This document shows positions 13 to 15,397 of a DNA stretch of 15,494 nucleotides, in pieces. Where the stretch lies: the IMG/VR virus record IMGVR_UViG_2568526635_000004, positions 1-15,494 of that record; one strand, 5' to 3'. This DNA comes from a virus (taxonomy: Duplodnaviria > Heunggongvirae > Uroviricota > Caudoviricetes). The position numbers and the translations under genes are program-made. Under the pieces are notes generated by a model. That model did no database searches. It saw only the letters and a program-made list of their open reading frames with translations, and had not been told where the DNA came from. Positions within the stretch are counted from its first letter, which is position 1. Each line of letters opens with the position of its first letter.

Positions 13-88
13 CCTCAAAACTGACCACACAACTGACCACACATTTCGTTGAAGCTCTACGAACAACGACGAACAATAACAAACAAAA
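13..88. repeat. Left copy of ~76-bp imperfect direct repeat flanking the element (putative attL); contains internal tandem CTGACCACACA x2 and GAACAA motifs phased at 10 bp
   Basis: Sequence 13-88 reappears at 15320-15397 with 2 substitutions and a 2-nt A-run length difference; every gene of the element lies between the two copies. Confidence 0.7.
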
Positions 89-364
89 GGGAAATTTGCT
101 GGCGGTTTTGCTTAACCGTTATCATTTTCCGGCTATCCGCCATGAAGCTGGTGGATGTTTTTTCTATGCAGATTTGCATAGTTTCAAATGGGGTTGGTCG
201 TTATGGGAATTCCCATATCGGCATCACGCCCACCAGCGTGAAGTATTTTTGTAATTTCGCGGGTGTAAAAATTTGACGAGGCGGGCGGTCCCATAAGCAA
301 TAGGTTGTAGGGATTTCGATCCCCCTCCTGAATGCAATTTTTCGTATATATATATACAAAACAG

Positions 365-517
365 TGCGGGTTATGCGGGTTAGCGGGTTATCTTCGCGTG
401 CTAAGTATTTTTTATTCTTTAATATCAATGCCTTAAAAAATAGCGTGTTTAAATATTATCCAAATCGTAACCCGCAAGTCATTCAAAATAACCCGCAAAC
501 ACCCCCCAAATAACCCG
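365..517. repeat. Iteron cluster: 3 tandem forward GCGGGTTA(T) copies (365-372, 374-381, 382-389), an AT-rich spacer, then 3 inverted copies TAACCCGC (467-474, 488-495, 510-517) at ~21-bp spacing; second origin-like or crr-like site
   Basis: Exact 8-mer matches counted directly; the same motif forms the array at 8647-8769 next to the replication gene; a degenerate copy GCGGGTGTA lies at 259-267. Confidence 0.6.
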
Positions 518-763
518 CAAACGCATCAGGAAAGTGGGTCCAGTGATGCCACCGAACGGCTGAATCGGGTAACGTTCTGTTGCCTGGTTGTTGTTTGCGG
601 GTCAGCAATACTGACGCGCAAAGTTAGTTGTATGTGGCTGTGCGTCCACCAGCTACGCCGGAATGGGGTATTCCGTTTCAACGGAACCGGTATGACGAAC
701 ATGATCGCACCTTCTCCCGAAAACGGTGCGACCTCCATAGAGGAAATGCCTATTCAGATCCCC

Positions 764-1118
764 GGTGATTTTCACCATTCAGAATCTGGAGGGTGAGTTT
801 TCCAGTTTTCCCCAATGGGGGATTCTGGAACAATCAACGGGTTAGCGATTAAGCTGGCGAGTAATTAAACTGCGAAAATTTCGTAGTTTGTGACTATCTG
901 AAAGATAGTCGGTTGTTCCGGCCTCAGCCGTTGGCTGTTCCCGAAAATATCAGTCAGTTACGTTAACCGCTGATTTCTGCCTTTGGTGTGAATACCGTCA
1001 CTTTAACCTACGGTAATCGTTCTGCCTCGGTGCGCGTCTCTTCCGTGGTCATTTCGACCATGCACCACACGAAAAGGTGGAGTGTTTATCACCTCCCCTT
1101 CGTGGTGATTTCCACCAT
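764..1118. repeat. Three copies of a 15-bp dyad motif GGT(G/C)ATTT(T/C)(C/G)ACCAT at 764-778, 1047-1061 and 1104-1118; putative protein-binding or hairpin-forming sites
   Basis: Each copy is an inverted repeat (GGTGA/TCACC or GGTCA..GACC); the second and third copies differ by compensatory changes that preserve the dyad; the surrounding ~30 bp is also similar between copies two and three. Confidence 0.5.
810..845. repeat. 36-bp direct repeat, copy 1 (CCCCAATGGGGGATTCTGGAACAATCAACGGGTTAG), contains CCCC-AAT-GGGG hairpin
   Basis: Matches 1218-1253 with 2 mismatches; a second shared segment (TTCCCGAAAATATCA..AGTTAC at ~936-960 versus ~1286-1310) follows each copy. Confidence 0.55.
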
Positions 1119-1217
1119 GCAGCCATCACACCGCCACGCAAAAGGGATTTACCACTACCAGCTATATCCCTCAAATCCACCAATGGTGGAAAAGCCCACA
1201 GCAGGCCGCCCAGCCTC

Positions 1218-1253
1218 CCCCAATGGGGGATTGTGGAAGAATCAACGGGTTAG
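1218..1253. repeat. 36-bp direct repeat, copy 2 (CCCCAATGGGGGATTGTGGAAGAATCAACGGGTTAG)
   Basis: See copy 1 at 810-845. Confidence 0.55.
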
Positions 1254-1303
1254 GCTGGTTTCCCCGATGTTCGCCGCTGGCGAATTTCGAAAATATCAAC
1301 CAG

Positions 1304-1597
1304 TTACCGCCGCAACCGCTCCGGCTTCTTCCACTGGTAAGTCTTTTTCTCGCTCTCCCGGTACATCTGCACGCGGCGACGGTAGGCCAGCAACTCGAGA
1401 ACTCTGGTACGTATATCGCGCATATCCACGCCGCTAAGCTCGATACCGTCACGGCGCATCACCTCAGCCACCACACGCGCGTAATTTTCGGCTATCACGC
1501 TGTCCGGCTGCGTGACCTCCTGTTTGCCTGCTGCCTGGCTGATTCCGGTAACGCGGCGGATTATTTTTAGTAGTTCGGTTTCGCTCATTCTCGTCAT
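1304..1597 (-). CDS. Hypothetical small protein (97 aa) translationally coupled to the end of the large terminase gene
   Basis: ATG at 1597 overlaps the terL stop (ATGA overlap, 1594-1597); alternative ATG at 1588 with GGGG ~10 nt upstream; no recognisable motif; basic C-terminus. Confidence 0.55.
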   Translation of the reverse strand: MTRMSETELLKIIRRVTGISQAAGKQEVTQPDSVIAENYARVVAEVMRRDGIELSGVDMRDIRTRVLELLAYRRRVQMYRESEKKTYQWKKPERLRR

Positions 1598-3255
1598 ACC
1601 CCATCAAACGCCGCAAGCCGCTCTTTGTGGCTGTCGCTCATATCGAATGCAAAATCCTCGTGCTCTGCCTGGAATGTGCCAAACGCCATCAGCGCCGCAA
1701 CGCTCGGGTCTATCTTGTTGGATGATTTTTTCTTGTTCGGCTTGATATTGGCGTTTGCGTCACTCTGCATCACAACATTACTCATTGACCAGGCCAGCAC
1801 CGGATCACCACGATGCACAATCACCTTCCGGTTAACAAAAACTTCGAACGATTTCGCCGCCGGACTGAAACGAAGGTATGTTTGCGGGAACGGCTCCACC
1901 TCAAATCCTGCCCCCTGTAGCTGCGTCCTCAGGTGCGTGGCGTTCCATGTATCGAAGCCCACCAGCCTGATATTGAAATTCTCTGCATCCGCCATGATGT
2001 CATCACGGATACGGTCATAATCAATGCAGTCACCCGGTGTTGTGCGTATCCAGCCCGCCTTTACCCACTGGCGATAGATGGCGCGGTTTTTATTGGCGGG
2101 GTTCTGTAGCTGAAATTCCGGCAGATAGTGACGGGAAACCAGCATAATCTTTTTACCGACCGGAAAGGCATAGCACACGCTGGAAATATCGCTGGTTGAT
2201 GATAAGTCCAGCCCCGCGTAGCACTCCTGCCCGTATAAATCCGCCTCCGCGAACGTTCCGGCGCACTCCGCCCATGCACCGTTACCCATCCACGGCGTAG
2301 CCCCCTGACACCAGATATTGAATCGCTTGGTGAGCATTTCCACCCACTGCGACGGAATACCCCGCGCTTTCTGGATGGTTGAGGCCAGTTTTTCACGATC
2401 GACGGAAACATCGATATTGGGATTCGCCTTTATCCACATCGCCGGATCGTCAACCTCGCTTTCATCATCCAGCTCGTAAATCAGCACGAACATGGATTCG
2501 TTCACCTCTTCACCATCCAGTATCTGGCAGCAATAGTCGTAGTGTTGTTTACAGGCTGAAACAACGTTGCTCCCCGATGTGGTGATGGCAAATAATAATC
2601 CCTCCGGACGCGCCCCCATTCCCAGTTCAAGCGCGGAATAAACCCCGTTGTCAGGGTGCAGGTGATATTCATCCACAATGGCAAGACTCGGGTTTGTACC
2701 TTCAATGGTTGCCGCTTTTGCTGCCAGTGGCTTTAACAGGCTGTTGGTTTTCGGGTGTATCACCTTGTGTGCCTGAATATTTACCCGTTTTCGTAACGGT
2801 CGGGATAAAAGGCACATCTGACGCGCATCATCAAACACGATCCGCGCCTGATCACGACTCACGGCGGCGGTGTAAATATCCTGCTGCCCGTTTTCCATAA
2901 CCAGAAACCAGTTAGCCAGGATAGCAGCGACCGTGGATTTGGCATTTTTTCGCGGTACTTCAATGAATGCGCTGGTGTATTTGCGCCGTCCGGTGGCCTT
3001 AACCTTAAAGCCCAGGATGCACGCAAAGGCGAACTGCTGCCACGGCTCCAGCTCAATGGGGCTACCGCGCATTGCGCCTTTTACGTGCGGGCACACCCTG
3101 GAAAAGGCAATAAACCGCTCCACGACCTCCGGATCGAACGTGTAAAGGGGGTTTTCAAGGTCAGAAAAATACCGTTTAACGGCCTGTTTCAGTCGTTTAC
3201 AGGCCGTAATTTTGCCGTTTTTTACGCCTTCTGCGTACTCATGCCAGGCGGTCAA
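1594..3255 (-). CDS. terL: Phage terminase large subunit (ATPase plus nuclease)
   Basis: 553-aa ORF with Walker A-like segment (PRKNAKST) and overall terminase-like layout; TTG start at 3255 preceded by strong AGGAAGAGGA Shine-Dalgarno; overlaps terS end. Confidence 0.93.
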   Translation of the reverse strand: MTAWHEYAEGVKNGKITACKRLKQAVKRYFSDLENPLYTFDPEVVERFIAFSRVCPHVKGAMRGSPIELEPWQQFAFACILGFKVKATGRRKYTSAFIEVPRKNAKSTVAAILANWFLVMENGQQDIYTAAVSRDQARIVFDDARQMCLLSRPLRKRVNIQAHKVIHPKTNSLLKPLAAKAATIEGTNPSLAIVDEYHLHPDNGVYSALELGMGARPEGLLFAITTSGSNVVSACKQHYDYCCQILDGEEVNESMFVLIYELDDESEVDDPAMWIKANPNIDVSVDREKLASTIQKARGIPSQWVEMLTKRFNIWCQGATPWMGNGAWAECAGTFAEADLYGQECYAGLDLSSTSDISSVCYAFPVGKKIMLVSRHYLPEFQLQNPANKNRAIYRQWVKAGWIRTTPGDCIDYDRIRDDIMADAENFNIRLVGFDTWNATHLRTQLQGAGFEVEPFPQTYLRFSPAAKSFEVFVNRKVIVHRGDPVLAWSMSNVVMQSDANANIKPNKKKSSNKIDPSVAALMAFGTFQAEHEDFAFDMSDSHKERLAAFDGV

Positions 3256-3595
3256 GCTCGTCCTCTTCCTCTGTTTCAGGTGGATTTCTGCGGCGGCTTA
3301 CCGGGTCAAAACCCAGCAAAGAAGCCATTTTGATCATTATTCTTTCTGCGTCAGCCTTTGCGCTCAGGGCGGGGTTTCTGCTCTCGCTGCCCTGACTGTT
3401 AACAATGCTGAACCCGCGCGTGGCAAGGTCTTCGACGGCTTTGCGGTATATGGAGTAGTTAACGCAATACAGCTCCAGATTGCTCCAGTCGGCGGGGGTA
3501 AGGTCTTCCCGTCCGGAAAGCTGGCGCGATTTTTCCTTCCACTGCCTGACCGCGATTTCATCCAGGTAAGCGGGGGCTTTTGGTGGTCTTGCCAT
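3239..3595 (-). CDS. terS: Phage terminase small subunit, P27-family-like
   Basis: N-terminus MARPPKAPAYLDE typical of P27-family small terminases; an in-frame ATG at 3736 with better Shine-Dalgarno would add 47 aa, so the true start is uncertain. Confidence 0.78.
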   Translation of the reverse strand: MARPPKAPAYLDEIAVRQWKEKSRQLSGREDLTPADWSNLELYCVNYSIYRKAVEDLATRGFSIVNSQGSESRNPALSAKADAERIMIKMASLLGFDPVSRRRNPPETEEEDELDRLA

Positions 3596-3883
3596 GTTCT
3601 TTTTTCGCCCAATTATTTTCAAAAAAATTCCCGTGCACAAAAATTTGAGGGGGCGGTCGGTGTCCGGCAGGGACGGTTTCGTCCTGAAAACCACCCCCAC
3701 CCCCTCTGACGGCCTCACCAGCGATTGCGAAAACATTCCATGACCTCGCGGTCACGGTCGGTTAATCGCTTCGCTGTGGTGCGTTTTGTGCGCCCTGTCC
3801 TGTTGGCTTTGTGCTCTGTCTCCTGTGTCTTCCATGTGTCACGCTGCCTTATCAGTCCACGTATCAGCCTGGTTTGCTCCTGT

Positions 3884-4324
3884 TCAGTCATCATCGCCAT
3901 ACATCCAGTCGTTACGGTGTGCCGCCCGTTCTTCCTGCTCGCGATACATGCCCGCTTTACGGTTTGCTTTCGTGGCTGGATCTTCCCGTGTCGTCTTACG
4001 GTTGTGGCACGTCTGGCACAATGCCTGGTGATTCCACTCAGGCCAGAAGAGAACATCACCGCCGCCATTGATGGGAATGATGTGATCCACCACAAGAGCT
4101 GGCGTATAAATCCCCTTAGCCAGACAACGCACGCATAACGGGTTTTTGCTCAGGTACAGGGCGCGGTATTTGTCCCACTGTCGGGAATACCCGCGCGCGC
4201 GGCGGTGTCCCCGTCTGGCATCCTCTGCACGCCATGCAGCCCGCCTGTGCTCTTCACACTTGCCGGACTTCACGCGCTTATTACAGCCAGGCTCAGTGCA
4301 TCGCCTTAATGGTTGCCACGGCAT
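3884..4324 (-). CDS. HNH endonuclease (phage packaging-associated)
   Basis: Cys-rich zinc-finger-like N-terminus (CTEPGCNKRVKSGKC), VVDHIIP and NHQALCQTCHNRKT motifs; ATGA overlap with the upstream connector gene. Confidence 0.9.
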   Translation of the reverse strand: MPWQPLRRCTEPGCNKRVKSGKCEEHRRAAWRAEDARRGHRRARGYSRQWDKYRALYLSKNPLCVRCLAKGIYTPALVVDHIIPINGGGDVLFWPEWNHQALCQTCHNRKTTREDPATKANRKAGMYREQEERAAHRNDWMYGDDD

Positions 4325-4626
4325 CAGTACACCCCTACGTCACGATAAACTGACCAGAGCGCAGAAATAGCCATAGGCAGTTCCGAGTGCTCCACTGGTG
4401 AAACCGCTTCCCGGTTCTCGTACAGGAAAGCGATGTACATCAGGCAACCAACACGCATTGCCGGGGTAAATTCCAGCCCGTCTTCAAAACGTTTCCCGAT
4501 ATGCTTCTGGCAGGCTTCCAGCGCCGCATCGGTATACATTTTCAGAAGTTCGCCTTCACCGGATAAATCATCATCAAGTCGAAGATGTGCCCTGACTTCA
4601 TCAGGTGTAATTCTGGCTTCACTCAT
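4324..4626 (-). CDS. gp6-like head-tail connector / adaptor protein
   Basis: Start MSEARITPDEVRAHLRLDDD resembles gp6-like head-tail connector proteins; ATG at 4626 has AGGGAG Shine-Dalgarno; the six-frame ORF extends to 4713 but that part overlaps the portal gene. Confidence 0.78.
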   Translation of the reverse strand: MSEARITPDEVRAHLRLDDDLSGEGELLKMYTDAALEACQKHIGKRFEDGLEFTPAMRVGCLMYIAFLYENREAVSPVEHSELPMAISALWSVYRDVGVY

Positions 4627-5833
4627 CTTTTCTCCCTTTAATTTCCACAGTCTGTTTCCATGCCTGGCTGAACTCATCACCACCTTCACGCGGCGGCATA
4701 CCCTCACGCTCACGGGCTTCGTTCGGATTCATGATCCCGTTCTTAATCCCTTTCTCATACGTGGCATAACGTTCGGTGGGTGTGGCGCGTAATAAATCGG
4801 CTGAATCAAACTCAACCAGATAACGGGTACCAGGTACGGGAGAAGCCACCAGCAAAGCGGCCTTGATTTGCTGTTCGAAGTTCGCCAGCCACGGGCGCAT
4901 TGTCATGGTCAGAAACGCGCGGCTTGCCTCGCTGAAATTGCTGTAGGTGCTGTTGCTGTATTCCTGCAGAAAAATCGGCGACACGTTGAACATCCTGGCG
5001 ATGTCTTCAATGGAGAAGCGACGGGAGGCCAGCCATTCCGCATCCTGGTTACTCATTCCCAGTTGCTTGTAATCCATGCCCCCTTCAAGGATTGGCGTTT
5101 TTCCGGCATTTTTCGCCCCCTTGTAGCGTTCCAGGGCGTCTAATGCCTGTTTACCTTTCACACCGTCCAGCCATTCGCCTGACGTGATAATCCCTGCCGC
5201 CATCATGCCATCTTTCATAATGCTGGCTCCGTGACGCTGTTGAGCAAGGCCAAGCCCCAGCGCCTCACGGCAAATCGTGACGGGGGAACGCCCCAGAAAG
5301 CCATCATCCGAGGCATAGCGGAGATGCAGAACTTCTTCCTGTAAATACGTGCGCACCGTTCCTGTACAGGGTTCGGTGATGGTATAGCGGTATTTGTGTG
5401 CGCCTGTGCGTTCCGGTACAACACACCCCGGCGCATAAGGATGAAGTGATTTTGGCTGCCCGTCCTGCCCCCACTCAATAACCGCATAGGCGTTACCGTT
5501 CAGCAGGCAGTGACGCATCATTGTGCGTTTAAACTGGTAAGGTGTCTGGCACGAATTAGGCTGCTCATTCAGCAGAATATCTACCGGGTGACTGTCCAGC
5601 CATTCCCGCGCCTCCCTGCCCTTGTCATTACGTACCAGATACAGATAACACGGCATCGTGGCCACCGCCTCAGCGATGACAGAAACCGCATTCATCACTG
5701 CAGGCAATGATTCAGCCGTCCCGGCAGAAACATATTCTCCGGATCCGGTATTCGGTACGCCGGACAGCGCCAGAAAATCATCAATGGACAGGTTACGCTG
5801 CTCGCTTTTTTTACGACTAAAAGGCCACCACAT
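4619..5833 (-). CDS. Phage portal protein, HK97 family
   Basis: ~400-aa ORF with portal-like sequence between protease and connector genes; ATG at 5833 with GGGG Shine-Dalgarno chosen over the upstream TTG at 5923, which would overlap the protease gene by ~90 bp. Confidence 0.88.
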   Translation of the reverse strand: MWWPFSRKKSEQRNLSIDDFLALSGVPNTGSGEYVSAGTAESLPAVMNAVSVIAEAVATMPCYLYLVRNDKGREAREWLDSHPVDILLNEQPNSCQTPYQFKRTMMRHCLLNGNAYAVIEWGQDGQPKSLHPYAPGCVVPERTGAHKYRYTITEPCTGTVRTYLQEEVLHLRYASDDGFLGRSPVTICREALGLGLAQQRHGASIMKDGMMAAGIITSGEWLDGVKGKQALDALERYKGAKNAGKTPILEGGMDYKQLGMSNQDAEWLASRRFSIEDIARMFNVSPIFLQEYSNSTYSNFSEASRAFLTMTMRPWLANFEQQIKAALLVASPVPGTRYLVEFDSADLLRATPTERYATYEKGIKNGIMNPNEAREREGMPPREGGDEFSQAWKQTVEIKGRKDE

Positions 5834-5834
5834 A

Positions 5835-6395
5835 TCACAACCCCGCCAGCTCAGACCAGCGATGACGATTATTTCCTGTCGGACGTAATTCAGGGTGCTG
5901 TGCAAACAACGAACGGTGGGCAATCTCCACGCCAGATTCTGGATAAGCAGGCATCGACGTTATTGTGATTTCACGGAGTTCAGCGGCGGTTACGGTACGC
6001 AGATACGGTTTTTGCGCGATACTCCACTCCTCGCATAATGCGCGAAAACCAAAGCTCATTCCTGTAATGTCGCCACGCTCCACCAGCGTAAGCACATCTT
6101 TTCCAAGCTGGGTATCCGGCGGTGTCAGTTCAAAACGTAACCCGGTGTTATCCTCAGTCAGTACCAGAGTGCCGGATTTGGTGCGCCCCAGCAGTTGGGT
6201 ATAGTCATGCTCATACAGGCAGCGCACATCATTACCCGTCGCCAGATAGTCAGCAAAAGCCCCCGGCGTGAACTGTTCGCGGAATTCGTCCCAGATAATT
6301 TCTGAAAGGCTGTTCCAGCGAACGGCATACCCCACCAGCTTTTTATTGCTGGCGGTCAGTTCAGATGTGCGGATTTCAAAATCGGTATTTTTCAT
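5835..6395 (-). CDS. HK97-family prohead (head maturation) protease
   Basis: 186-aa ORF with typical prohead protease segments (GYAVRWN, HDYTQLLGRT); GGAG Shine-Dalgarno 9 nt upstream of the ATG. Confidence 0.9.
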   Translation of the reverse strand: MKNTDFEIRTSELTASNKKLVGYAVRWNSLSEIIWDEFREQFTPGAFADYLATGNDVRCLYEHDYTQLLGRTKSGTLVLTEDNTGLRFELTPPDTQLGKDVLTLVERGDITGMSFGFRALCEEWSIAQKPYLRTVTAAELREITITSMPAYPESGVEIAHRSLFAQHPELRPTGNNRHRWSELAGL

Positions 6396-6411
6396 CGGTA
6401 TACTCCATAAA

Positions 6412-6438
6412 GCTGAAAAAGGAGGCCGAAGCCTCCTC
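6412..6438 (-). terminator. Rho-independent terminator or attenuator between major capsid and protease genes
   Basis: On the minus strand: AGGAGGC-UUCG-GCCUCCU (7-bp GC-rich stem, UUCG tetraloop) followed by a U-tract; sits 12 nt after the capsid stop codon. Confidence 0.65.
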
Positions 6439-6449
6439 CTTACTCATGA

Positions 6450-7619
6450 CTAGCCAGCTTTCATTTCCAGAATTTTGATGGCGTTTGAATCCACCACACC
6501 ACCGCCCAGATATTTATCCGTGTGGACCTTGTAGAATCCGGGTTCAGTAATGTTGTCCGGTCGGGTGCGAATCCCTGTTACATGATCAACGATGAAATAA
6601 CCACGACTGAAATCGCCAACCGCTAGCGGTGCTTTTCCTGCGCCGATGTCCGGCATGGACTCCAGGCAGTAAACAGGACGACCAAGCAACATATCCGGCG
6701 CACCTTCTTTAAGGCTGTCGCGCCAGATATAATCGCCGTTCTCATTTTTCAGCTTCTGTAGTGTCCCTGCCGTGCCCGAGTTCATCACCCAGACGGCATT
6801 TTTGCGGTATTTCGCTTTCAGCTTGTAGAGAATGTCGATCAGTTCGTCCGCTGTAATGGCGGTTCCACTTGCCGCTACCATTTTTTCAATGGTGCCAAAA
6901 GCGCGGGTTTTGTCACTGGTCGCCGCACGGGTGTAAGCCATGAAGCCTTTCGGCTTGCCGTTACCGTCGCCATTAACAAAATCATCCTCTTCGGTGCTGA
7001 CGAACGTGTCGGCAATTTCGGAGGATAACCAGCCCAGAATATCCACCTCTGAAAAATCCAGGATTTCCTGCGTGGTTTTCGGGTAGGCGTAGATCGGATT
7101 CAGCTTGATGGTTACGCGTTCAATTTTCGGGGTGTTGGTTTCACTGCGTGCGCTGCCTTCTGTGCCTCGTCCTACAGTTGCGCCGCCAGTGGAAACCAGT
7201 TTCTGAAACTCATTTGATTTTGCGGTCTTCACGGTCGCGATCACGCGCATAACACTGTCATCCTGTAGCTGGCGCATGACTTCGCGATCGAGCTCAGGAA
7301 TTACGGTATATCCGCCATCCCTGCCGCTGTCAGTGCTGGTGGACAGTGATCGCACATCTCCGGTTACGATGTAGTTACGCAATTCATCAGATGATAATTT
7401 CTGGATGCCCGTTCCTGGCTTGCTGCGTTCTTCATCAGCCACAGACTCGAGGCGGGAAATTTCTGTGTCGAGAGAATCGGCTTTTGCACGCAGTTCATCA
7501 AACTGTTTGCCCTCGTCATCGTTCAGGCTGCGGTTTTCACTGTCGGCTTTTTCCAGCAGGGATCGCATCTGGTTTTTCAGGGCGGTTTTTTGCTGGCGGA
7601 GTTCGATTAATTTCTTCAT
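6450..7619 (-). CDS. HK97-fold major capsid protein with N-terminal coiled-coil scaffold (delta-like) domain
   Basis: 389-aa ORF; charged coiled-coil-like N-terminal ~100 aa followed by MCP-like body and a C-terminus typical of HK97 capsid proteins. Confidence 0.92.
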   Translation of the reverse strand: MKKLIELRQQKTALKNQMRSLLEKADSENRSLNDDEGKQFDELRAKADSLDTEISRLESVADEERSKPGTGIQKLSSDELRNYIVTGDVRSLSTSTDSGRDGGYTVIPELDREVMRQLQDDSVMRVIATVKTAKSNEFQKLVSTGGATVGRGTEGSARSETNTPKIERVTIKLNPIYAYPKTTQEILDFSEVDILGWLSSEIADTFVSTEEDDFVNGDGNGKPKGFMAYTRAATSDKTRAFGTIEKMVAASGTAITADELIDILYKLKAKYRKNAVWVMNSGTAGTLQKLKNENGDYIWRDSLKEGAPDMLLGRPVYCLESMPDIGAGKAPLAVGDFSRGYFIVDHVTGIRTRPDNITEPGFYKVHTDKYLGGGVVDSNAIKILEMKAG

Positions 7620-7689
7620 GAAGGTTTTCTCGTATTGGTTAAGATTCAGGACGTGAAACCAACACGGAGGGAGCGCCGCCCGACACTCT

Positions 7690-7839: not shown

Positions 7840-7856
7840 ATAATTTACAAAACCTG

Positions 7857-7884
7857 AAAAAAAGACCCGGGGTAAATCCGGGCC
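7857..7884 (-). terminator. Rho-independent terminator ending the replication/early operon
   Basis: On the minus strand: 7-bp stem GGCCCGG/CCGGGUC with a 7-nt loop followed by 7 U residues; 10 nt downstream of the 82-aa ORF stop. Confidence 0.75.
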
Positions 7885-7893
7885 TTTATCGCT

Positions 7894-8142
7894 TTACTGT
7901 TTCACGGGATCGCGCATTCTGCGCCTTATTTTCCACAAATATTCGATCATCGCTTCCACCTGCTCACGGTTGGTTGCGAAAATTTCCCCGGTCAGTGAGC
8001 TGCGCAGAAAATCATGATGATCCACAACAAATAACGCATCGGAAGAAAGCAGACGGCGATATTTTTTTGCTGTCGTGGTTTCCAGATCATCAATACCATG
8101 AAACTTTTTATGTTGCTGAACTTCTTCAAATGTCACTGGCAT
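7894..8142 (-). CDS. Hypothetical small protein (82 aa), basic C-terminus
   Basis: ATG at 8142 with AGGGGGA Shine-Dalgarno; followed by a strong terminator; no recognisable motif. Confidence 0.6.
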   Translation of the reverse strand: MPVTFEEVQQHKKFHGIDDLETTTAKKYRRLLSSDALFVVDHHDFLRSSLTGEIFATNREQVEAMIEYLWKIRRRMRDPVKQ

Positions 8143-8159
8143 GTATCCCCCTGTTATCG

Positions 8160-8582
8160 CTAAAAGGGTATGTTATCCCCGTATGGATCATCATTCCCCG
8201 CCTGTTGCTTAGCCCTATTTAGAGCGTCAGTAGCCTGGCCCTGCTGGCCTTTTTTGCCACCAGGTCGCGCCGTTCTGGCACTGATTACGCTGTCTGCGAT
8301 AACCTGCCAGCCCTGCCGCGTTTCCCCGTTCTGGCCTGTCCACTGGCTTACCTGCATGTTACCCGCCACGCTCACCAGCTCGCCTTTGTGGTGTTTTGCC
8401 AGTGCGTCGGCCTGTCTGCCAAACGCCAGAACGGATAACCACATCGTCGCCTGTCCGTCATCTGCCTGATTGCACGGCAGGGGGACAGCCATGCTTGCCA
8501 TAGCCATTTGTGTGCCCTTGCTGGTGGTCTTTAACTGCGGGTCAGCCACCAGCCGCCCGTAAGCTGCTATCTGTGCTGTCAT
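8160..8582 (-). CDS. ssb: Single-stranded DNA-binding protein-like (SSB-like) with acidic C-terminal tail
   Basis: 140-aa ORF with OB-fold-like layout, Gly/Gln-rich linker and a C-terminal DDPYGDNIPF resembling the canonical SSB DDDIPF tail; GGAGAA Shine-Dalgarno. Confidence 0.7.
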   Translation of the reverse strand: MTAQIAAYGRLVADPQLKTTSKGTQMAMASMAVPLPCNQADDGQATMWLSVLAFGRQADALAKHHKGELVSVAGNMQVSQWTGQNGETRQGWQVIADSVISARTARPGGKKGQQGQATDALNRAKQQAGNDDPYGDNIPF

Positions 8583-8646
8583 GCTGTCTGTTCTCCGGTT
8601 TTAACGTTGATAGTTACGCTTGTTTACACCCTTACGGTGAAATTCT

Positions 8647-8769
8647 GCGGGTTATAATCGCACTTTTGCGGGTTATAACTGCCGTTTTGCGGGTTACGTG
8701 CGGGTTATTGATTTCCTTTTTATTCATACAGTTAATGCACTTACACACAGGATAACCCGCATAACCCGC
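8647..8769. repeat. Origin-like iteron array: 4 forward GCGGGTTA copies (8647, 8668, 8689, 8700; 21/21/11-bp spacing), AT-rich spacer, 2 tandem inverted copies (8753-8760, 8762-8769)
   Basis: Exact repeats counted in the sequence; located immediately downstream of the primase/helicase gene, with the AT-rich segment 8709-8750 between the arms. Confidence 0.7.
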
Positions 8770-8793
8770 AACTTTTCACCTCACACAGGGGAG

Positions 8794-10917
8794 TTAATCT
8801 TCTGCCTCAGGCTGGAACATCATCACGTAAAAAACATGCTGCTTACCCCCAATTTTGCCGAGCGCCTTTTTCTTGTAACGGCGATCGTTACCCGCTTCCA
8901 GCATTCCGGCAGCACTCAACGCGCGGGCAAAGTGGGATGGGTTAAATCCCTGTGCGATCTCCCCCTCAAACACATGAGGAAACGTGTAAAAACGGAACTC
9001 ATCATCTTCATTTCTGATACTCCCCTTTCTGTATCCGGCAAGGTCTTTAATCGGTAAATCACGCTCGTCGGTGTTGGGCCACGGAAGGTATCTGCTGAAT
9101 CCGAACGACGCTAAAAAAGCCTCTGCCTGTTCAACCATCTGTTTAAACTCCCTGTTACCCGTGCCGAACTCCTTCACCCAGGCATTAAAATTATGCTGAA
9201 TGGCATCGCGGCATTCCTGCTCATTCCAGCCAGTAACATGACCGGAAAGCACAAGCGCGGCCTCCAGTATGGCGAAACGCTCACCCACGCGGTGGACCTG
9301 CTCGCCGTAGCTCTCCGGTATCAGGTTGCGCCACCGTTCACGGCATGCCCTTACCATGTCCTTTGCCTCCTGCTGGTGGTCTGCCAGCCATTTAACCCAC
9401 TCACGCCCCGCCGCCCCGTGATTTTCTGTCCAGGCATCTTTTAACGCGTCTGCGTGCGCCTTTCCGGTGCTGTATTCGTGAAATTGTGTGGCTTTTTCCA
9501 TCGGCACGTTAAGCAGGCGGACAAGCTGCCCCGCCTTGACTTTTATCCCCTCCGTTTTGAGGAATGTTTCAACGTCCATTTCTCCGGTACTGATTGCCAC
9601 CGTTCGCCAGTGTTTTATCTCCCTGTTGCCGCCGTCCTTCGCCCCCTGTAATTTCCCGGAACCGTTAAACAGCGTATAAGCAGACGTTGACACCTCCCGC
9701 GCGTTTCCGGCCTGGCCTATTTCATCCAGGGGTAACAGCCCGTCGTTGTGTGCCTCTGCCTCGTTGGCGATACCTAACGCTGTGCCGTACCAGGTCAGCC
9801 GCTGCGCGTCCGGCTCTCCCCATAAACTTGATGCGATGTTCTGCGTTGTGGTCTTACCTGCCGATGACTGTTCGAAAAGATGTACCCCGAAGCCGTCAGC
9901 ACCCACCAGCCCGATTAATGGTGCGGATAGCGATACCGCCACACCCAGCATCATGGACGGATTACCACCAGCCAGTCGCGCCACACTGTCGCGCCAGCCC
10001 TCCGCCGTTCCTGCCACGGAATAACCATTAACGGCAGCCGTTTTTCCGGTAAACAGGACTGGCTTTTCGCAATCACCAATGACCGAACCGTCCGGCATGA
10101 TGTACGCGCCAAAATGCCAGCCCGTTGTTGTGCTTAACTGCCATTCCTCATGGTTTCCGCTTAACTGCATCCAGTCAGCCAGGATAGCCCTGTATTTACC
10201 GTTGGTTGTCACGTTCAGTCCGTGGTCTTTCAGCAGCCGCCAGCCGTCACGGTCGCCAATGCCACCGCACGGAACCGCCATCGTGATGACTTCATGGTTT
10301 GCTGGCTTTTTCCAGCGCATCACGCGGTAATGCTCTTTGCCGATTGTCCCCGTTCCCAGTAGCTCAAGCGGGGAGCATAACCACGTTTCAGGCCGGATAA
10401 TTTCGCCTGACTGCTTATCCACTTTTGGCGTTACCCAGAAAACACCATCGGCGCGGCTTTCAACGCGGGGCTTTAATTCATCATCACCCGGGCTTTCTGT
10501 GATTTTTTTCTTTAAGGGCAACACCAGACTTTCCCCGCGCTCGTATTCGTCTTTGAGGCGAGGCAACTGGTCGGATAAATCCGCCGGGCTGGTGTCAGTT
10601 ATCCCCGCGTATTCGTATACGGTCTTCACGCCAGCCACAGCCAGCAACGTGACGATCTGTGTGAGGCTACGTTCAGTGATGTGCCCTGCGCGGTAAATAC
10701 GCACACACTGACGGCTATCATCAATAATTTGATAACCGGTAATATCTTTCAGGTGTTCATCTGACAGAACGACAGGCGGCACATTGTCGGCGGCAATATG
10801 CTTACCTGCCCATTCCTGCCACTCTTTCGCATGGCTCCACGCATCACTACCCGCAAAGATGATAACCTCCGTCATTTTGTCGGCTGGCTGGTGCTTTAAG
10901 TTTGGTGCGCGCTTCAT
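8794..10917 (-). CDS. Replication initiation protein, primase/helicase type (P4 alpha-like, Walker A GKT)
   Basis: 707-aa ORF with a central P-loop (FEQSSAGKTTT) and large flanking domains; ATG at 10917 with GGGGAAAGG Shine-Dalgarno, ATGA overlap with the upstream ORF; the exact family was not verified. Confidence 0.8.
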   Translation of the reverse strand: MKRAPNLKHQPADKMTEVIIFAGSDAWSHAKEWQEWAGKHIAADNVPPVVLSDEHLKDITGYQIIDDSRQCVRIYRAGHITERSLTQIVTLLAVAGVKTVYEYAGITDTSPADLSDQLPRLKDEYERGESLVLPLKKKITESPGDDELKPRVESRADGVFWVTPKVDKQSGEIIRPETWLCSPLELLGTGTIGKEHYRVMRWKKPANHEVITMAVPCGGIGDRDGWRLLKDHGLNVTTNGKYRAILADWMQLSGNHEEWQLSTTTGWHFGAYIMPDGSVIGDCEKPVLFTGKTAAVNGYSVAGTAEGWRDSVARLAGGNPSMMLGVAVSLSAPLIGLVGADGFGVHLFEQSSAGKTTTQNIASSLWGEPDAQRLTWYGTALGIANEAEAHNDGLLPLDEIGQAGNAREVSTSAYTLFNGSGKLQGAKDGGNREIKHWRTVAISTGEMDVETFLKTEGIKVKAGQLVRLLNVPMEKATQFHEYSTGKAHADALKDAWTENHGAAGREWVKWLADHQQEAKDMVRACRERWRNLIPESYGEQVHRVGERFAILEAALVLSGHVTGWNEQECRDAIQHNFNAWVKEFGTGNREFKQMVEQAEAFLASFGFSRYLPWPNTDERDLPIKDLAGYRKGSIRNEDDEFRFYTFPHVFEGEIAQGFNPSHFARALSAAGMLEAGNDRRYKKKALGKIGGKQHVFYVMMFQPEAED

Positions 10918-11228
10918 TTTGCCTTTCCCCGTTCACGAATAATTTCACGTACTGCCTTAATGCGTTCCATTCCTGTAACGCGCATGATTCTGTCGATGTC
11001 GCTTAATTCTGCTGGTGGTGCTTTGCTTACCAGGGTGAACTCCCTGTCAAAGCGCATATGTGACGACACGCAGGGATGCGCATAACCTTCGCGGATATAG
11101 GTCACACGAAAATCATCGACGGTTTTAATCGTTATCGTGCTGCCGTATTTATCCCGGAAAATATCACCGGGGCGGATTTCAGGCCGAGCGTGACCGCTGG
11201 CAGTAAAGCCAGAATTTTTCTTTTTCAT
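10914..11228 (-). CDS. Hypothetical protein (104 aa) coupled to the primase gene
   Basis: ORF with ATG start; its stop overlaps the primase start codon; no recognisable motif. Confidence 0.6.
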   Translation of the reverse strand: MKKKNSGFTASGHARPEIRPGDIFRDKYGSTITIKTVDDFRVTYIREGYAHPCVSSHMRFDREFTLVSKAPPAELSDIDRIMRVTGMERIKAVREIIRERGKAK

Positions 11229-11234
11229 GTTTTT

Positions 11235-11453
11235 TTACTCCAGAGGCAGCTTTTTAGCGGCGAGCTCAATATCAGATGTCAGAGAAACCTGTGTATTTGC
11301 CAGGTCTAACAACAAAGAAATAAGAATTTCTTCTCTGCTATCGGATTTATCGGTGCTAAGGCTGTTCATCCACATATTGACGACTTCCCTGATTTTTTTC
11401 GCAGAGTGCAGGGCTTCAAATGCCAGGTCTTCAATATCATGTTTATTTCGCAT
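11235..11453 (-). CDS. Hypothetical small protein (~72 aa), relatively AT-rich
   Basis: ATG at 11453 preceded by a GGGGG Shine-Dalgarno; the ORF track offers a longer version to 11483; overlaps the stop of the upstream small ORF. Confidence 0.5.
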   Translation of the reverse strand: MRNKHDIEDLAFEALHSAKKIREVVNMWMNSLSTDKSDSREEILISLLLDLANTQVSLTSDIELAAKKLPLE

Positions 11454-11688
11454 AATCGCCCCCGCCATTTTCACAATCAGCAATCAGGATGGCTTTAGCC
11501 TCATTCAGCGCCATATCAGCGGTAAGCTGTGCGTAAGCCAGCGAATGCGGGATTATCGCCCCTGTATATTCCGTCTCTCTGGTAATGTGTTTTTCTGCGG
11601 TTGCTACCGTGCATGAAATATCAATCAGCGCGTGCATCAGCGTTTTGATGGCTTCGGCGGCTGCGTCCGGACGGGTGTTATTGCACAT
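11443..11688 (-). CDS. Hypothetical small protein (~81 aa)
   Basis: ATG at 11688 with GGGGG Shine-Dalgarno, overlapping the stop of the Ash/Icd-like ORF; the six-frame ORF extends further upstream but that part overlaps the neighbouring gene. Confidence 0.5.
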   Translation of the reverse strand: MCNNTRPDAAAEAIKTLMHALIDISCTVATAEKHITRETEYTGAIIPHSLAYAQLTADMALNEAKAILIADCENGGGDYAK

Positions 11689-12217
11689 GGCGCACCCCCT
11701 GACGAATACGGGCGGCGAATACAGCGACACAACCTGACGGGCAATGGTTACGCGCTTCGCGTTCCGTCCAGGCGGTGACGTGGATGATTTGGGACTCTGA
11801 CGCGCCAAAGATGATAAAGCGCCAGATAAAGGCAGTTTGGGAATGTACAAGGGTAGGGATAGTAGCCATGTTGGCAGCCTCTTCGTTAGGTTTAATAAAC
11901 CCACCGCAGGAAACGCCAATTTCGCTGGCGGTGGACTGTACAGGGTTGGCGTAACCGGTTAACGAAGAACCCGGCGCGGATTGCTCCGCCCCCATACAGC
12001 CCACCATTGATAAGGTGTGACTATCCGGCACAAAAAAACACGCAGGGCGCGTGTTGTGCGCTTCGTTAAATACCAGGACGCCAATCCCGGCACCAGATTT
12101 TGCTGGTGCGGGTAAATCATAGCCCTGGCTGGCAGTGGCGATCAACAGGTTTTTTACATCGGGTTTATTCAGGTTGTGCGAGTCCCGCCCTTGCGGGTGT
12201 GTGGTATGATTTAGCAT
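11678..12217 (-). CDS. Ash-family-like protein with C-terminal Icd-like (cell-division-inhibitor-like) segment
   Basis: Segments AKSGAGIGV, FFVPDSH, SMVGCMGAEQ, ANPVQSTASEIGVSCGG recall Ash-family proteins of P4-like elements; the C-terminal FIWRF...TEREAR...FAARI recalls Icd-like peptides (an internal ATG at MATIPTL could yield a ~62-aa product); start at 12217 has a GAGGT Shine-Dalgarno. Assignment is from memory of these families, not from a search. Confidence 0.5.
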   Translation of the reverse strand: MLNHTTHPQGRDSHNLNKPDVKNLLIATASQGYDLPAPAKSGAGIGVLVFNEAHNTRPACFFVPDSHTLSMVGCMGAEQSAPGSSLTGYANPVQSTASEIGVSCGGFIKPNEEAANMATIPTLVHSQTAFIWRFIIFGASESQIIHVTAWTEREARNHCPSGCVAVFAARIRQGVRHVQ

Positions 12218-12314
12218 AGCTACCTCGATACGCTTTCTATCGTTGGTGGTTAGAAGCCCTGCGAGTGGTAACGACACTTGCGGGGCTTTGCATTTATGCA
12301 CCTTGATAACCTCA

Positions 12315-12350
12315 AGGTGTGGCCCACTATATGCTTTAGGTGTGGTCCAC
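12315..12350. promoter_or_regulatory. Two operator-like 13-bp direct repeats AGGTGTGG(C/T)CCAC, each containing the dyad GTGG-N-CCAC, in the divergent control region
   Basis: Repeats at 12315-12327 and 12337-12350; immediately upstream of a TATACT -10-like hexamer (12381-12386) and the plus-strand small gene. Confidence 0.5.
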
Positions 12351-12416
12351 GTCAAGGGTTTTATTTGTGCTTTTTCTGTGTATACTGTCCCCCACCAATC
12401 CAACAGAGGAATAGAA

Positions 12417-12596
12417 ATGGCAACGGGTACAACAAACGCAAAATCACAAGCTCTAAAGGCTCGTGTACCACACGAAATAGTAAACGCCATGGAATCAGTG
12501 AAAGAATCAGGCGAAAGCACATCACAATTCATCATTGCGTCAATGCAAGGCGAGATCAAACGCCGCCAGCGCAGGAAGGCCAAAGAGCAGGAATAG
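12417..12596 (+). CDS. Small ribbon-helix-helix-like (Arc/MetJ-type) DNA-binding protein, candidate repressor
   Basis: 59-aa ORF (MATGTTNAKSQALKARVPHEIVNAMESV...) with GAGGAA Shine-Dalgarno 7 nt upstream; N-terminal basic beta-strand-like segment followed by helices; the only plus-strand gene, divergent from the replication operon. Confidence 0.6.
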   Translation: MATGTTNAKSQALKARVPHEIVNAMESVKESGESTSQFIIASMQGEIKRRQRRKAKEQE

Positions 12597-12729
12597 CCCA
12601 CCAGCAAGCCAGCACATTCACCATAATGACCCTCGGTTAAACCTAGAGTCATTGGTGCAAACCTGACAGATTGCCCACCAGCCAGCAAATCGCTATGATG
12701 TTCGGGCTTATGTTTAGTGTTTTCCCATT

Positions 12730-12758
12730 GGCGACCGCCCCCGGTCGCCTTTGTTTTA
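12730..12758 (+). terminator. Rho-independent terminator on the plus strand
   Basis: Perfect 8-bp stem GGCGACCG/CGGTCGCC with CCCC loop followed by TTTGTTTTA; ~135 nt downstream of the plus-strand small gene. Confidence 0.7.
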
Positions 12759-12776
12759 TGTGCCATATACTCCCCT

Positions 12777-13001
12777 TTACGCTGCCTTGCCTGAATTAAT
12801 GCGATCCCGGCTTTTAACCCATTCCATAACCTCGGACAGCAGCCAACCTACAGAACGACCGCCCAGATTAAGACGTGACGGAAAGCATCCTTTTTTCTCC
12901 AGTTCGTAGCGTGTAGTGCGGCACACTCCTGTTAACTTACGGCATTCATCCTCACGGATTACGCGATCTGATAGTGATTGCGATTGTTTGAGTTGGTTCA
13001 T
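12777..13001 (-). CDS. alpA: AlpA-family transcriptional regulator (excisionase-like helix-turn-helix)
   Basis: SDRVIREDECRKLTGVCRTTRYELEKKGCFPSRLNLGGRSVGWLLSEVMEWV matches the AlpA/phage regulatory protein pattern; ATG at 13001 has a GAGGG Shine-Dalgarno (the ORF track extends to 13037). Confidence 0.85.
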   Translation of the reverse strand: MNQLKQSQSLSDRVIREDECRKLTGVCRTTRYELEKKGCFPSRLNLGGRSVGWLLSEVMEWVKSRDRINSGKAA

Positions 13002-13079
13002 ATAAAAACGCCCTCGTTCGTTATCGTTCGAGAGCATTTTTTATGAGAGAAAATAGGTAAGCAATAAACAAAAAAATAA

Positions 13080-14075
13080 TTATTTTTCTTTATTTATTTT
13101 GTATTCGCTAAGTAATTTATAAATTTTAGGTCTAATTTTTTCTAAAAATGGTATAACTGTTTGTTCAAGCCCGAAACCATCACGCTCACCATTGGGATAA
13201 ATCATGGATGCAAGAACACGCTTTGGGACTCTTCTTTTTGTTCCAAATGTATAAAACTTAGCCAACATCAATAAATCCATAAGCGGTATAATTTTATATT
13301 TTATTATTCTCTCTCTCAAATATCCCCATGCCCGTTTGGGTTCAGGCTCTTCTAAATTGAGTTCTTTTCTCCATATCGGTAATAATTTTTTTAAATCAGA
13401 TAATATCTCATCATCTGTTTTTGTAATATCAAGTGACAAGTGCATTGCATAAGAAAAGCCTTCACTATTAGACTTCATCAATTCAGGCGCAACTGCACTT
13501 AAACTCTCATTTGCCAAAGTAAATAGAAGTTCATCATCATACTCAGATAAATAATCGACATCTTCAGAGCTCAACAATAATGTGCGCTCAGTTCCTGCAC
13601 CCGATGATGGTTTTTTCCAAACATAATTTTCAAGCATTATTCTTCGCAAAGGGACTACGGTTCGAGTTGATGATAACATATGAGGAAAAAAACCTTTATA
13701 CAGTTCTTTTCTTATGTTTTTTTCATAAAACGAATAGTCCGCACCAATATCATCGCCAATAACTGAAGATGCAAATATCTTTCTAAACCGACCAGAAACA
13801 AAAGCAATCTCAGTTTCTATTGATGGAATTTTTGAATTAATAATATCTTTTGTCTCATTCTCATCTTCTGGCAAACTCCTTACATCGATAAAATTCTCAT
13901 ACAAATAAGCCATAAAGTGTTCTTCATCTTCTACAACAAACCCCTTTATAAATCTGTTGTAATCCTCTCTACGCATTAACTGAGTAATCAATTCAAAATC
14001 ACTCATATCGGTAAAAACTTCATACTTCCCCAAATTAAAGCCCAATGCTTCTGCAAAATTTTTAAAAGAAATCAT
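13080..14075 (-). CDS. Hypothetical 331-aa cargo protein, strongly AT-rich, unknown function
   Basis: Uninterrupted ORF whose ATG overlaps the integrase stop (ATGA at 14072-14075); nucleotide composition visibly far more AT-rich than the rest of the element; no recognisable catalytic motif by eye. Confidence 0.8.
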   Translation of the reverse strand: MISFKNFAEALGFNLGKYEVFTDMSDFELITQLMRREDYNRFIKGFVVEDEEHFMAYLYENFIDVRSLPEDENETKDIINSKIPSIETEIAFVSGRFRKIFASSVIGDDIGADYSFYEKNIRKELYKGFFPHMLSSTRTVVPLRRIMLENYVWKKPSSGAGTERTLLLSSEDVDYLSEYDDELLFTLANESLSAVAPELMKSNSEGFSYAMHLSLDITKTDDEILSDLKKLLPIWRKELNLEEPEPKRAWGYLRERIIKYKIIPLMDLLMLAKFYTFGTKRRVPKRVLASMIYPNGERDGFGLEQTVIPFLEKIRPKIYKLLSEYKINKEK

Positions 14076-15292
14076 TTGCTAACCTTCAAAATAACAACAT
14101 TTTCATTATTACCAACTAACACATCGAGACGTTCAACCCATAGATTCAGAGCGTCCCGCTTCGCCTGTAAATAGCGTGAATGGTTATAGGTTTTTTGCTG
14201 ACCAGGCATCTGATGCGCTGTGATGTGCTCCACGATATGCGGATCGACACCTAAATCGTTCAGCATCGTTGTAAACGTGTGGCGAAAGTCATGCAGCGTC
14301 CAGTGTTCCTGGTTAAGCCGCTTATGCGCATTTCGCCCATATTGCGCTACCGTGGTATCTTTTTTCAGTTCTCCGAGTAACAACCCTGTATGCCGGTTCT
14401 GCTCCACCAGCTTCTGAATGAACGGCAAAATGCCATCGGGTATTGGCCTGAATATCGTTACCTTCGTTTTGCTGTGCTCTTTTGGCACTGTCCACAACAT
14501 TTCTTTCAGATCCCATTCTTTGATCTCTGAAAGTCTGACCTCTGCCGTTCTGCACCCGAACACAATCAGCAAGCGCATTAACGCGCTGTAGTAAGGCGCG
14601 AACACATCACCATCAATAGCGCGTAAAATTTCCTTTAATTCGCTGTTGCTGTGCACCCTCTCGCGAATTTCTGCTCTCTTACCCACATCGCTGACGATCA
14701 AATCGTCCAGGGCATTACTGAACGCGTAGCGCCTCCTGCGGCAGAACTTTAGCGCCTGTTTGCAGGTTTGCATGACGTGCCCTGCTGCTACTGGTGCTTT
14801 TTTTCGTACACGGTCAAAACATGCGATCCACTGCCTTGTATCGCATTTATCAAGAGGAATTGCCCCTATATGGCAAATGATGTGCTTATCCATACGTTGC
14901 ACCAGCTTTATGTAGTCTTTGCGGTTATCCTTCGCGTATTCCTCCAGCCAGTAGTTAATCGCCTCCTTTACCGTAACGGGTTTTAGTGATTCCTGTACTG
15001 TGGCGCACAACTCATAACGGGGGTTTTTACCCTCAGCCAGCCATGCCCGGCACTGTGTGCGTTTTTCCCTTGCGGCTTTCAGCGACAATTCCGGATAAGC
15101 CCCCAACTTTAGCCGCTCAGCGGCAACCTCACGGCCTCCCGTTCGATACCGGAAATACCAGGTTAATTTGCCGCCCTTTGAGTGTTTAATCTCCAGCCCG
15201 CCCCCGTCGGAGTAAAAACGCTCTTTTTCTGCCTGGACAGCCGCTAATTTTTTTAACGTCGAATCGCTCAGTTTGTTTAGTGCTTTTCCCAC
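14072..15292 (-). CDS. int: Tyrosine recombinase / integrase, P4 type (N-terminal arm-binding domain plus catalytic domain)
   Basis: 406-aa ORF; N-terminus LSDSTLKKL...GGLEIKHSKGGKLTWYFRYR typical of P4-like integrase arm-binding domains; catalytic HDFRHTF and C-terminal Tyr region; GTG start at 15292 with AAGAGGA Shine-Dalgarno; adjacent to the right direct repeat. Confidence 0.93.
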   Translation of the reverse strand: MGKALNKLSDSTLKKLAAVQAEKERFYSDGGGLEIKHSKGGKLTWYFRYRTGGREVAAERLKLGAYPELSLKAAREKRTQCRAWLAEGKNPRYELCATVQESLKPVTVKEAINYWLEEYAKDNRKDYIKLVQRMDKHIICHIGAIPLDKCDTRQWIACFDRVRKKAPVAAGHVMQTCKQALKFCRRRRYAFSNALDDLIVSDVGKRAEIRERVHSNSELKEILRAIDGDVFAPYYSALMRLLIVFGCRTAEVRLSEIKEWDLKEMLWTVPKEHSKTKVTIFRPIPDGILPFIQKLVEQNRHTGLLLGELKKDTTVAQYGRNAHKRLNQEHWTLHDFRHTFTTMLNDLGVDPHIVEHITAHQMPGQQKTYNHSRYLQAKRDALNLWVERLDVLVGNNENVVILKVSK

Positions 15293-15319
15293 TATCAGAT
15301 CCTCTTTTCAGTCCTCCAG

Positions 15320-15397
15320 CCTCAAAAAACTGACCACACAACTGACCACACATTTTGTTGAAGCTCTACGAACAACGACGAACAACAACAAACAAGA
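15320..15397. repeat. Right copy of the ~76-bp imperfect direct repeat (putative attR), immediately upstream of int
   Basis: See left copy at 13-88. Confidence 0.7.

Follow-up and report, generated by a model that had tools for sequence, protein, structure and literature searches.

The DNA studied here is the 15,494-nt IMG/VR virus record IMGVR_UViG_2568526635_000004 (the window), which an original prediction made from the letters alone had described as a tail-less, capsid-forming satellite. We compared 30 open reading frames (ORFs) of the window with PHROGs, and 20 of these also with Pfam. The profiles confirmed each gene that had been named: int, alpA, an Ash/Icd-like gene, and genes for a primase/helicase, SSB, a major capsid protein, a prohead protease, a portal, a gp6-like head-tail connector (Ad1), an HNH endonuclease, TerS and TerL, all on the minus strand (Table 1). 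Among the sizeable genes, only that at 12417-12596 lies on the plus strand. None of the scanned ORFs matched a tail, baseplate, holin or lysis family, and no tRNA gene was found in the window.

Phage-inducible chromosomal islands that form capsids (cf-PICIs) were described in 2022-2023. They make a small capsid of their own, fill it themselves and take nothing but the tail from a helper phage, and about 970 of them have been catalogued by SatelliteFinder, in ~13% of Enterobacteriaceae genomes. The prototype, EcCIEDL933 of Escherichia coli O157:H7 EDL933 (NZ_CP008957.1, ~1680329-1695500, between roxA and phoQ), has the same gene order as the window from int to the gene after terL, the same GCGGGTTA iterons, a size of ~15.5 kb and no tail or lysis genes. 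Fourteen conserved genes are collinear between the two and encode proteins of 51-94% identity, and another shared small gene reaches 43%. The best solved-structure match of the capsid protein is PDB 9GYI (E 1.7e-155), the cryo-EM model of the T=4, 47.5-nm capsid of EcCIEDL933 with its 15.5-kb genome inside. The next-best solved relatives are the capsid proteins of the Rhodobacter capsulatus gene transfer agent, 6TB9 and 6TBA (E ~6e-55). The HK97-fold capsid protein and the S78 protease are shared with the head of phage HK97 and with this gene transfer agent capsid (6TB9), but the window differs from both in its predicted small T=4 shell, its gene order and its lack of tail genes.

Under the cfPICI model of SatelliteFinder and the criteria of He et al., the size of the element (~15.54 kb between the att cores) lies within the range of 10-18 kb, the conserved gene order is kept, and the forbidden tail, holin and lysis genes are not present among the scanned ORFs. 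Ten of the 11 core components are present, which places it in "Type B" if, as we read the model, its "adaptor" component corresponds to the head-closure protein Hc1. Since the model accepts ten of 11 components (459 of the 969 elements are Type B), the element belongs to the family under the operational definition. These results indicate that the window very probably holds an integrated E. coli cf-PICI of ~15.5 kb, inserted between thiM and rcnR in the leader of thiM. It is an ordinary mosaic member of this published family of E. coli phage satellites; each of its modules is present at 95-100% identity elsewhere in E. coli, but any one complete genome covers at most 83% of the window.

Table 1. 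Genes, RNAs, repeats and other features of the window, in order of position.
Feature	Position	Strand	Evidence and remarks
Left copy of 70-nt direct repeat	17-86		Inside the element, ~63 nt from the left junction
Degenerate copy of terS-upstream block	253-289		76% direct copy of 3625-3661
Distal iteron cluster	366-518		Three forward and three reverse copies of GCGGGTTA, around an AT-rich spacer
Non-coding region 3' of packaging operon	802-1307		35-44-nt repeats at 802-845, 927-961, 1210-1253 and 1264-1307
Last gene of packaging operon	1304-1597	-	phrog_1561; 73% identical to a 94-aa hypothetical protein of EcCIEDL933
TerL	1594-3255	-	PF03354 and PF20441; 94% identical to EcCIEDL933
TerS, P27/Terminase_4 family, 118 aa	3239-3595	-	PF05119; 89% identical to EcCIEDL933
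Conserved non-coding blocks, candidate cos	3610-3662 and 3693-3705	-	Upstream of terS; nearly invariant in 68 loci
60-aa gene	3718-3900	-	phrog_3173; 77% identical to the 61-aa gene between HNH and terS of EcCIEDL933
HNH endonuclease	3884-4324	-	PF01844; 84% identical to EcCIEDL933
gp6-like head-tail connector Ad1	4324-4626	-	TIGR01560, E 1e-19; phrog_40, E 6e-29; 56% identical to EcCIEDL933
Portal	4619-5833	-	PF04860, E 8e-93; 81% identical to EcCIEDL933
Prohead serine protease, HK97-family S78	5835-6395	-	PF04586, E 6e-46; 62% identical to EcCIEDL933
Major capsid protein, HK97 fold	6450-7619	-	PF05065, E 7e-71; PDB 9GYI, E 1.7e-155; 64% identical to EcCIEDL933
82-aa gene	7894-8142	-	phrog_1957; 43% identical to a hypothetical protein of EcCIEDL933
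SSB	8160-8582	-	Pfam; 71% identical to EcCIEDL933
Proximal iteron cluster	8647-8769		GCGGGTTA four times forward and twice reverse around an AT-rich spacer; adjoins the replication gene
DUF927 primase/helicase (replication protein)	8794-10917	-	phrog_1139 (DNA primase), E 2e-174; 83% identical to EcCIEDL933
DUF4222 protein	10914-11228	-	Pfam; 51% identical to EcCIEDL933; conserved upstream of the replication gene
Two small genes	11235-11483 and 11443-11688	-	phrog_2196 and phrog_5146
Icd-like gene, 63 aa	11678-11869	-	NCBIfam; 81% identical to EcCIEDL933
Downstream C4 targets a2 and b2	11879-11888 (a2) and 11913-11920 (b2)	-	8-10-nt complementarity
C4-type antisense RNA	11924-12011	-	Rfam RF01695; 75.3 bits (gathering score 45)
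isrK	12033-12109	-	Rfam; 80 bits (gathering score 50)
Intrinsic terminator in isrK	12037-12055	-	
Upstream C4 targets a1 and b1	12061-12069 and 12078-12085	-	8-10-nt complementarity
c4-a1b1	12070-12122	-	44.5 bits, just below the threshold of 46.7
Sigma-70-like promoter	12326-12355	-	Consensus match only, 10 of 12 positions
YlcI/YnfO-family small gene	12417-12596	+	Profile match
AlpA regulator/excisionase	12777-13037	-	PF05930, E 1.6e-15; 69% identical to EcCIEDL933; relatives annotate a 74-aa version
DUF6387 protein	13080-14075	-	Pfam; region of 32-41% G+C
P4-type tyrosine integrase	14072-15292	-	PF13356 and PF00589, with arm-binding and catalytic domains; phrog_1, E 2.5e-67; 67% identical to EcCIEDL933
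Right copy of 70-nt direct repeat	15326-15395		Inside the element
14-nt att core ATACGGGTATTTCT	15481-15494		Identical to the K-12 thiM leader, inside the TPP riboswitch aptamer

The flanks of the occupied site overlap by 14 nt on the empty site of K-12 (BLAST; 1384-1397 of the K-12 locus L097), so that the crossover is assigned to this 14-nt core and not to the 70-nt direct repeats between which the element had been placed. The right copy of the core ends exactly at the end of the window (15494), the left junction falls outside the window, 47 nt and the 14-nt core before position 1, and the excised unit would be ~15.54 kb. The two 70-nt copies are real repeats (97% identical), but both lie inside the element rather than at its junctions; the left copy contains ACTGACCACAC twice and ACGAACAA twice. 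They are probably arm repeats flanking attP, with arm-type sites for the integrase. In the K-12 locus the thiamine pyrophosphate (TPP) riboswitch aptamer was found at 1337-1433 (Rfam, 71 bits), and no TPP aptamer reached the Rfam gathering threshold in the occupied locus of strain UMNF18 (L001), where copies of the att core lie at 7940-7953 and 23887-23900. The core stands in the middle of the aptamer, and from these findings integration appears to split the thiM TPP riboswitch. EcCIEDL933 occupies another att site, at roxA/phoQ. The whole island is transcribed towards thiMD; that it affects thiMD expression is speculative.

In UMNF18, the closest relative in a complete genome, a homologous island (83% coverage, 96.5% identity) lies between thiM/thiD and rcnR/rcnA. 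In contigs with a 100%-identical DUF6387 protein, int is adjoined by rcnR, rcnA, rcnB and the yeh fimbrial operon, and in contigs with a 100%-identical TerL the last packaging gene is followed by thiM/thiD or other core genes. Tail or lysis genes next to the element had been named beforehand as the observation that would count against a satellite. None was found beside five related elements, located at four chromosomal sites, whose flanks consist of core chromosomal genes. In addition, a 100%-identical TerL was found in intact operons with Ad1 as their only connector gene at the thiM, hpt, clpS and phoQ sites (at least four sites; loci L092-L096), and the packaging operon with this TerL is combined with three unrelated replication modules, of the DUF927, AAA_25 and D5_N/DUF5906 types. 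This distribution argues for recent mobility rather than decay, and it shows that modules are freely shuffled among E. coli cf-PICIs.

The claim of a full head-building set held for capsid, protease, portal, Ad1, HNH, TerS and TerL, but not for head closure. In EcCIEDL933, Hc1 (112 aa, phrog_25) is encoded between portal and Ad1. No tblastn match to Hc1 was found in the window, and a hidden Markov model built from 62 cf-PICI Hc1 proteins gave no match at E<=10 in the six-frame ORFs of the window, with positive controls at 137-156 bits. The portal and Ad1 genes of the window overlap, leaving no room for an Hc1 gene. EcCIEDL933 also has PerC and several small genes, including a 248-aa ORF next to alpA, that the window lacks. 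Among 70 species-level relatives, 60 carry both Hc1 and Ad1 (portal-HNH gap ~640 nt) and ten carry Ad1 only (~300 nt). The Ad1-only loci are scattered in the relatedness comparison and their nearest relatives mostly have Hc1, and states without Hc1 are seen in seven or more other genera, in no single clade; this lack of clustering suggests several independent losses of Hc1. The contiguous portal-Ad1-HNH junction of the window is common to 143 of 5426 complete E. coli genomes, whereas ~370 match the flanks of the junction only, with a head-closure gene annotated in between in the eight listed. EcCIGN02175 and KpCIDSM30104, the cf-PICIs of "tail piracy" (He et al. 2025), belong to the same family as the window; compared by description, they were reported with adaptor and connector, and the window has the connector only. 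The adaptor and connector genes are reported to be a variable hotspot and to decide which tails a cf-PICI can use (He et al.).

An island without Hc1 must borrow this protein from its helper as well, or close the neck in some other way; the borrowing itself is speculative. We tentatively propose, as one possibility, that the element represents a recurrent, mobile cf-PICI sub-lineage that gave up its own head-closure (stopper) protein and either takes Hc1 from the helper or seals the neck by Ad1 alone. Several observations weigh against the main reading, that of a working cf-PICI. Hc1 is absent without any remnant. In EcCIEDL933, transfer was abolished when any gene of the packaging module other than 1792 was mutated, and helper proteins did not compensate. 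In UMNF18, terS and HNH are frameshifted (L001 10984-12068), which means that some copies of the lineage are decaying. No helper phage is identifiable from the window, and induction, capsid size, cos position and tail use of the element are predicted by homology. The first three of these observations would suit a cf-PICI by descent that is no longer infective, in which loss of Hc1 would allow DNA to be packaged but neither retained nor joined to a tail, so that the island is a vertically inherited remnant. We regard this explanation as unlikely, since all other genes of the window are intact, the intact Hc1-less operon with its identical TerL occurs at several sites and with different replication modules, the junction is present in well over a hundred E. 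coli genomes, and the Hc1-less state of other genera points to a loss that is repeated and tolerated.

It is very improbable that the element is a defective HK97-like prophage from which the tail and lysis modules were deleted, although its head and packaging genes do belong to HK97-type families. The order capsid, protease, portal, Ad1, HNH, TerS, TerL is not known from HK97-like phages, and over 70 loci across Enterobacterales keep the head-packaging gene order of the element. The integrase, alpA and replication modules are of the PICI type and the size is constant at ~15.5 kb. Only four records of the phage collection matched the element, at 75-77% DNA identity, and at least two of them are satellite-sized or fragmentary. 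When the collection was searched for a donor of Ad1, satellite-like records reached 46-68% identity and true phages only 34-40%, and no lead to a helper emerged. Satellite-sized records of 15-16.5 kb have been deposited as phages (LR881103.1 and OR544139.1; Escherichia phage vB_KppS-Ant and Pasteurella phage Pmp8), and they match the portal-capsid region of the element and/or its Ad1 connector. A fragment in the collection labelled with the host ATCC 43895 was considered as EcCIEDL933 and rejected, being a different element with no match to an O157 genome.

That the element is a P4-like satellite with acquired head genes is hardly credible: the P4-type integrase, AlpA, and icd with a C4/CI-type immunity RNA would fit, but no psu, delta, sid or epsilon homologue was found in any scanned ORF, the replication protein is of the DUF927 type and not of the D5_N/DUF5906 alpha type (a protein of that type occurs in the relative L093 with the same packaging module, but not in the window), and SatelliteFinder cleanly separates the P4-like and cfPICI families. 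Satellite P4 does share with the window an RNA immunity element upstream of the replication operon, besides its integrase and AlpA-type regulator; it differs in its sid, psu, delta and epsilon genes and in the family of its primase/helicase, and it resizes the capsid of P2, whereas the element makes its own. Classical PICIs of Gram-negative bacteria such as EcCICFT073 resemble the window in int, alpA and replication modules, but they remodel helper capsids and lack a portal, a connector, TerL and a full set of capsid genes; the portal and the Ad1 connector of the window are both forbidden in the PICI model. All three of these alternatives, a prophage remnant, a satellite of the P4 type and a classical PICI, were considered and rejected.

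The P4-like integration and regulatory genes had also been taken as a possible sign of a variant lineage of cf-PICIs, a view that did not survive comparison. A set of int, alpA and rep is standard for Gram-negative PICIs and for EcCIEDL933, whose int, alpA and rep were reported to be identical to those of classical E. coli PICIs, and whose induction needs alpA; AlpA is found in many cfPICIs. Moreover, a classical PICI that occupies this thiM site as well (locus L086) carries the int-DUF6387-alpA module at 99.8% identity. Because the prototype shares these genes with classical PICIs and the same module occurs on L086, the P4-like control genes mark no variant lineage. The DUF6387 protein, which distinguishes the window from EcCIEDL933, recurs at 100% identity, together with this int and alpA, in islands of both the cf-PICI and the classical PICI type, and a DUF6387 gene adjoins alpA also in the Klebsiella island ICEKp258.2. 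No match to a PADLOC defence system was obtained for DUF6387 and nine other unknown ORFs. DUF6387 may be part of the module for integration and regulation and not defence cargo.

P4-like control stood in another respect: the window carries a P1/P4-type antisense-RNA immunity module, C4 and isrK, that is undetectable in EDL933, with no Rfam match at all in EcCIEDL933. The hairpin loop of C4 (11960-11969) is complementary to both 12061-12069 and 11879-11888, and a second segment (11946-11952) pairs with 12078-12085 and 11913-11920. The a2 target lies 10-19 nt upstream of the start codon of icd (11869), over the presumed ribosome-binding site. The arrangement is that of the immI (c4-icd-ant) region of phages P1 and P7, with a1/b1 targets, C4 RNA, a2/b2 targets over the icd translation start, and icd. 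In P1 and P7 the antirepressor gene lies 3' of icd, whereas in the window no antirepressor (ant) gene coupled to icd was found; icd is followed there by small unknown genes, DUF4222 and the DUF927 gene of the satellite replication operon. A promoter-like site upstream of the module could, by its match to the consensus, drive the C4-icd-replication operon. Matches to C4 and isrK, as relatives of the CI and seqA RNAs of P4, have already been reported in Gram-negative PICIs.

Positions 11722-12163 of the window are missing from its closest relatives at this att site, and the segment occurs in 222 E. coli genomes, including one cf-PICI at 100% identity; an nhmmer search of 80 species-level loci with the C4 region gave six weak matches, some of them outside the regulatory module. 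The promoter-like site and a leader hairpin (GCAAAGCCCCGCAAGTGTC.TTACCACTCGCAGGGCTTCTAACC) are common to the window (12216-12330) and EcCIEDL933 (L004 12795-12920), in which the leader runs almost directly into icd, whereas ~390 nt with the C4 module intervene in the window. The leader gave a weak R1162-like antisense match (E 0.25). In the Ash/Icd region (11678-12112), ~190 of the 273 nt of the Ash protein match overlie isrK and the C4 RNA, and the ash protein annotation may be, at least in part, an artefact of the RNA locus. The Pfam Phage_ASH match and the RefSeq "ash family protein" calls (11840-12122, minus strand) lie largely on isrK and the C4 RNA, and a 362-aa ORF (11678-12766) spans both RNAs in frame with icd.

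The iterons noticed near the primase/helicase proved to be well above expectation, with 12 occurrences of GCGGGTTA in the window against 0.5 by chance. They form two clusters 8 kb apart, of which the proximal one is presumed to be the origin of replication and the distal one lies near the far end of the element. EcCIEDL933, in contrast, has one composite cluster (L004 16194-16500). All four full loci with this DUF927 replication gene, one of them at another att site, have the distal cluster, and loci with the same packaging module but another replication gene lack it. It travels with the DUF927 gene and not with the packaging or integration modules. Two separated iteron clusters recall the ori and crr of P4; a role of the distal iterons in replication is speculative.

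The HNH-dependent terminases known are of the cos type. The cf-PICI packaging system requires HNH besides TerS-TerL, and the two non-coding blocks upstream of terS are near-invariant in 68 loci of many genera whose proteins are only 50-90% identical. Taken together, the requirement for HNH and the invariance of the blocks suggest that the cos site probably lies within 3610-3705. The degenerate copy of the terS-upstream block at 253-289 stands near the left end, just inside ~229-232, where many E. coli relatives start to align. Most IMG/VR contigs are prophage calls from isolate genomes; the one metagenome contig of ~15.5 kb seems, by expected gene positions only, to end past the terL-distal gene and not at the candidate cos, and gives no evidence on packaging ends. 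The 60-aa gene upstream of terS is, by gene numbering, probably the counterpart of gene 1792 of EcCIEDL933, mutation of which lowers transfer. The repeats 3' of the packaging operon (802-1307) contain small palindromes such as CCCCAATGGGGG, and the corresponding gene of EcCIEDL933 is followed by related repeats (GGTAACTGGTTGATATTTTCG and the like; L004 24758-25180).

Gene content, att core, iterons, complementarity of C4 to its targets and the lack of genes for tail, lysis and Hc1 are read from the sequence itself; the cycle proposed here is modelled on EcCIEDL933. cf-PICIs are induced by helpers in an alpA-dependent manner, encode their own small capsids, package their own DNA specifically and need only phage tails. 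In this element, C4 antisense RNA would keep the integrated island quiescent, probably by blocking translation of icd and thereby the downstream replication operon. By analogy with EcCIEDL933, a helper phage would switch on alpA, AlpA and the integrase would excise the island, and replication from the GCGGGTTA iterons would be carried out by the DUF927 primase/helicase with SSB. A small T=4 head of the HK97 type would then be built by the capsid protein, the protease and the portal, HNH, TerS and TerL would cut and package unit-length DNA at cos, probably just upstream of terS, and the Ad1 connector would dock the tail of the helper.

The same element pairs the Hc1-less state with antisense RNA of the P1/P4 type that probably locks its replication operon. 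Of its features, only the Hc1-less state is likely to interest the specialist, as that of a widespread E. coli sub-lineage with an otherwise intact operon. If the tentative proposal of a mobile sub-lineage without its own stopper is true, Hc1-less islands could not live by stealing tails only, and the helpers that they can use would change. It would also bear on the release of stable, DNA-filled, tail-less capsids for "tail piracy" across species.

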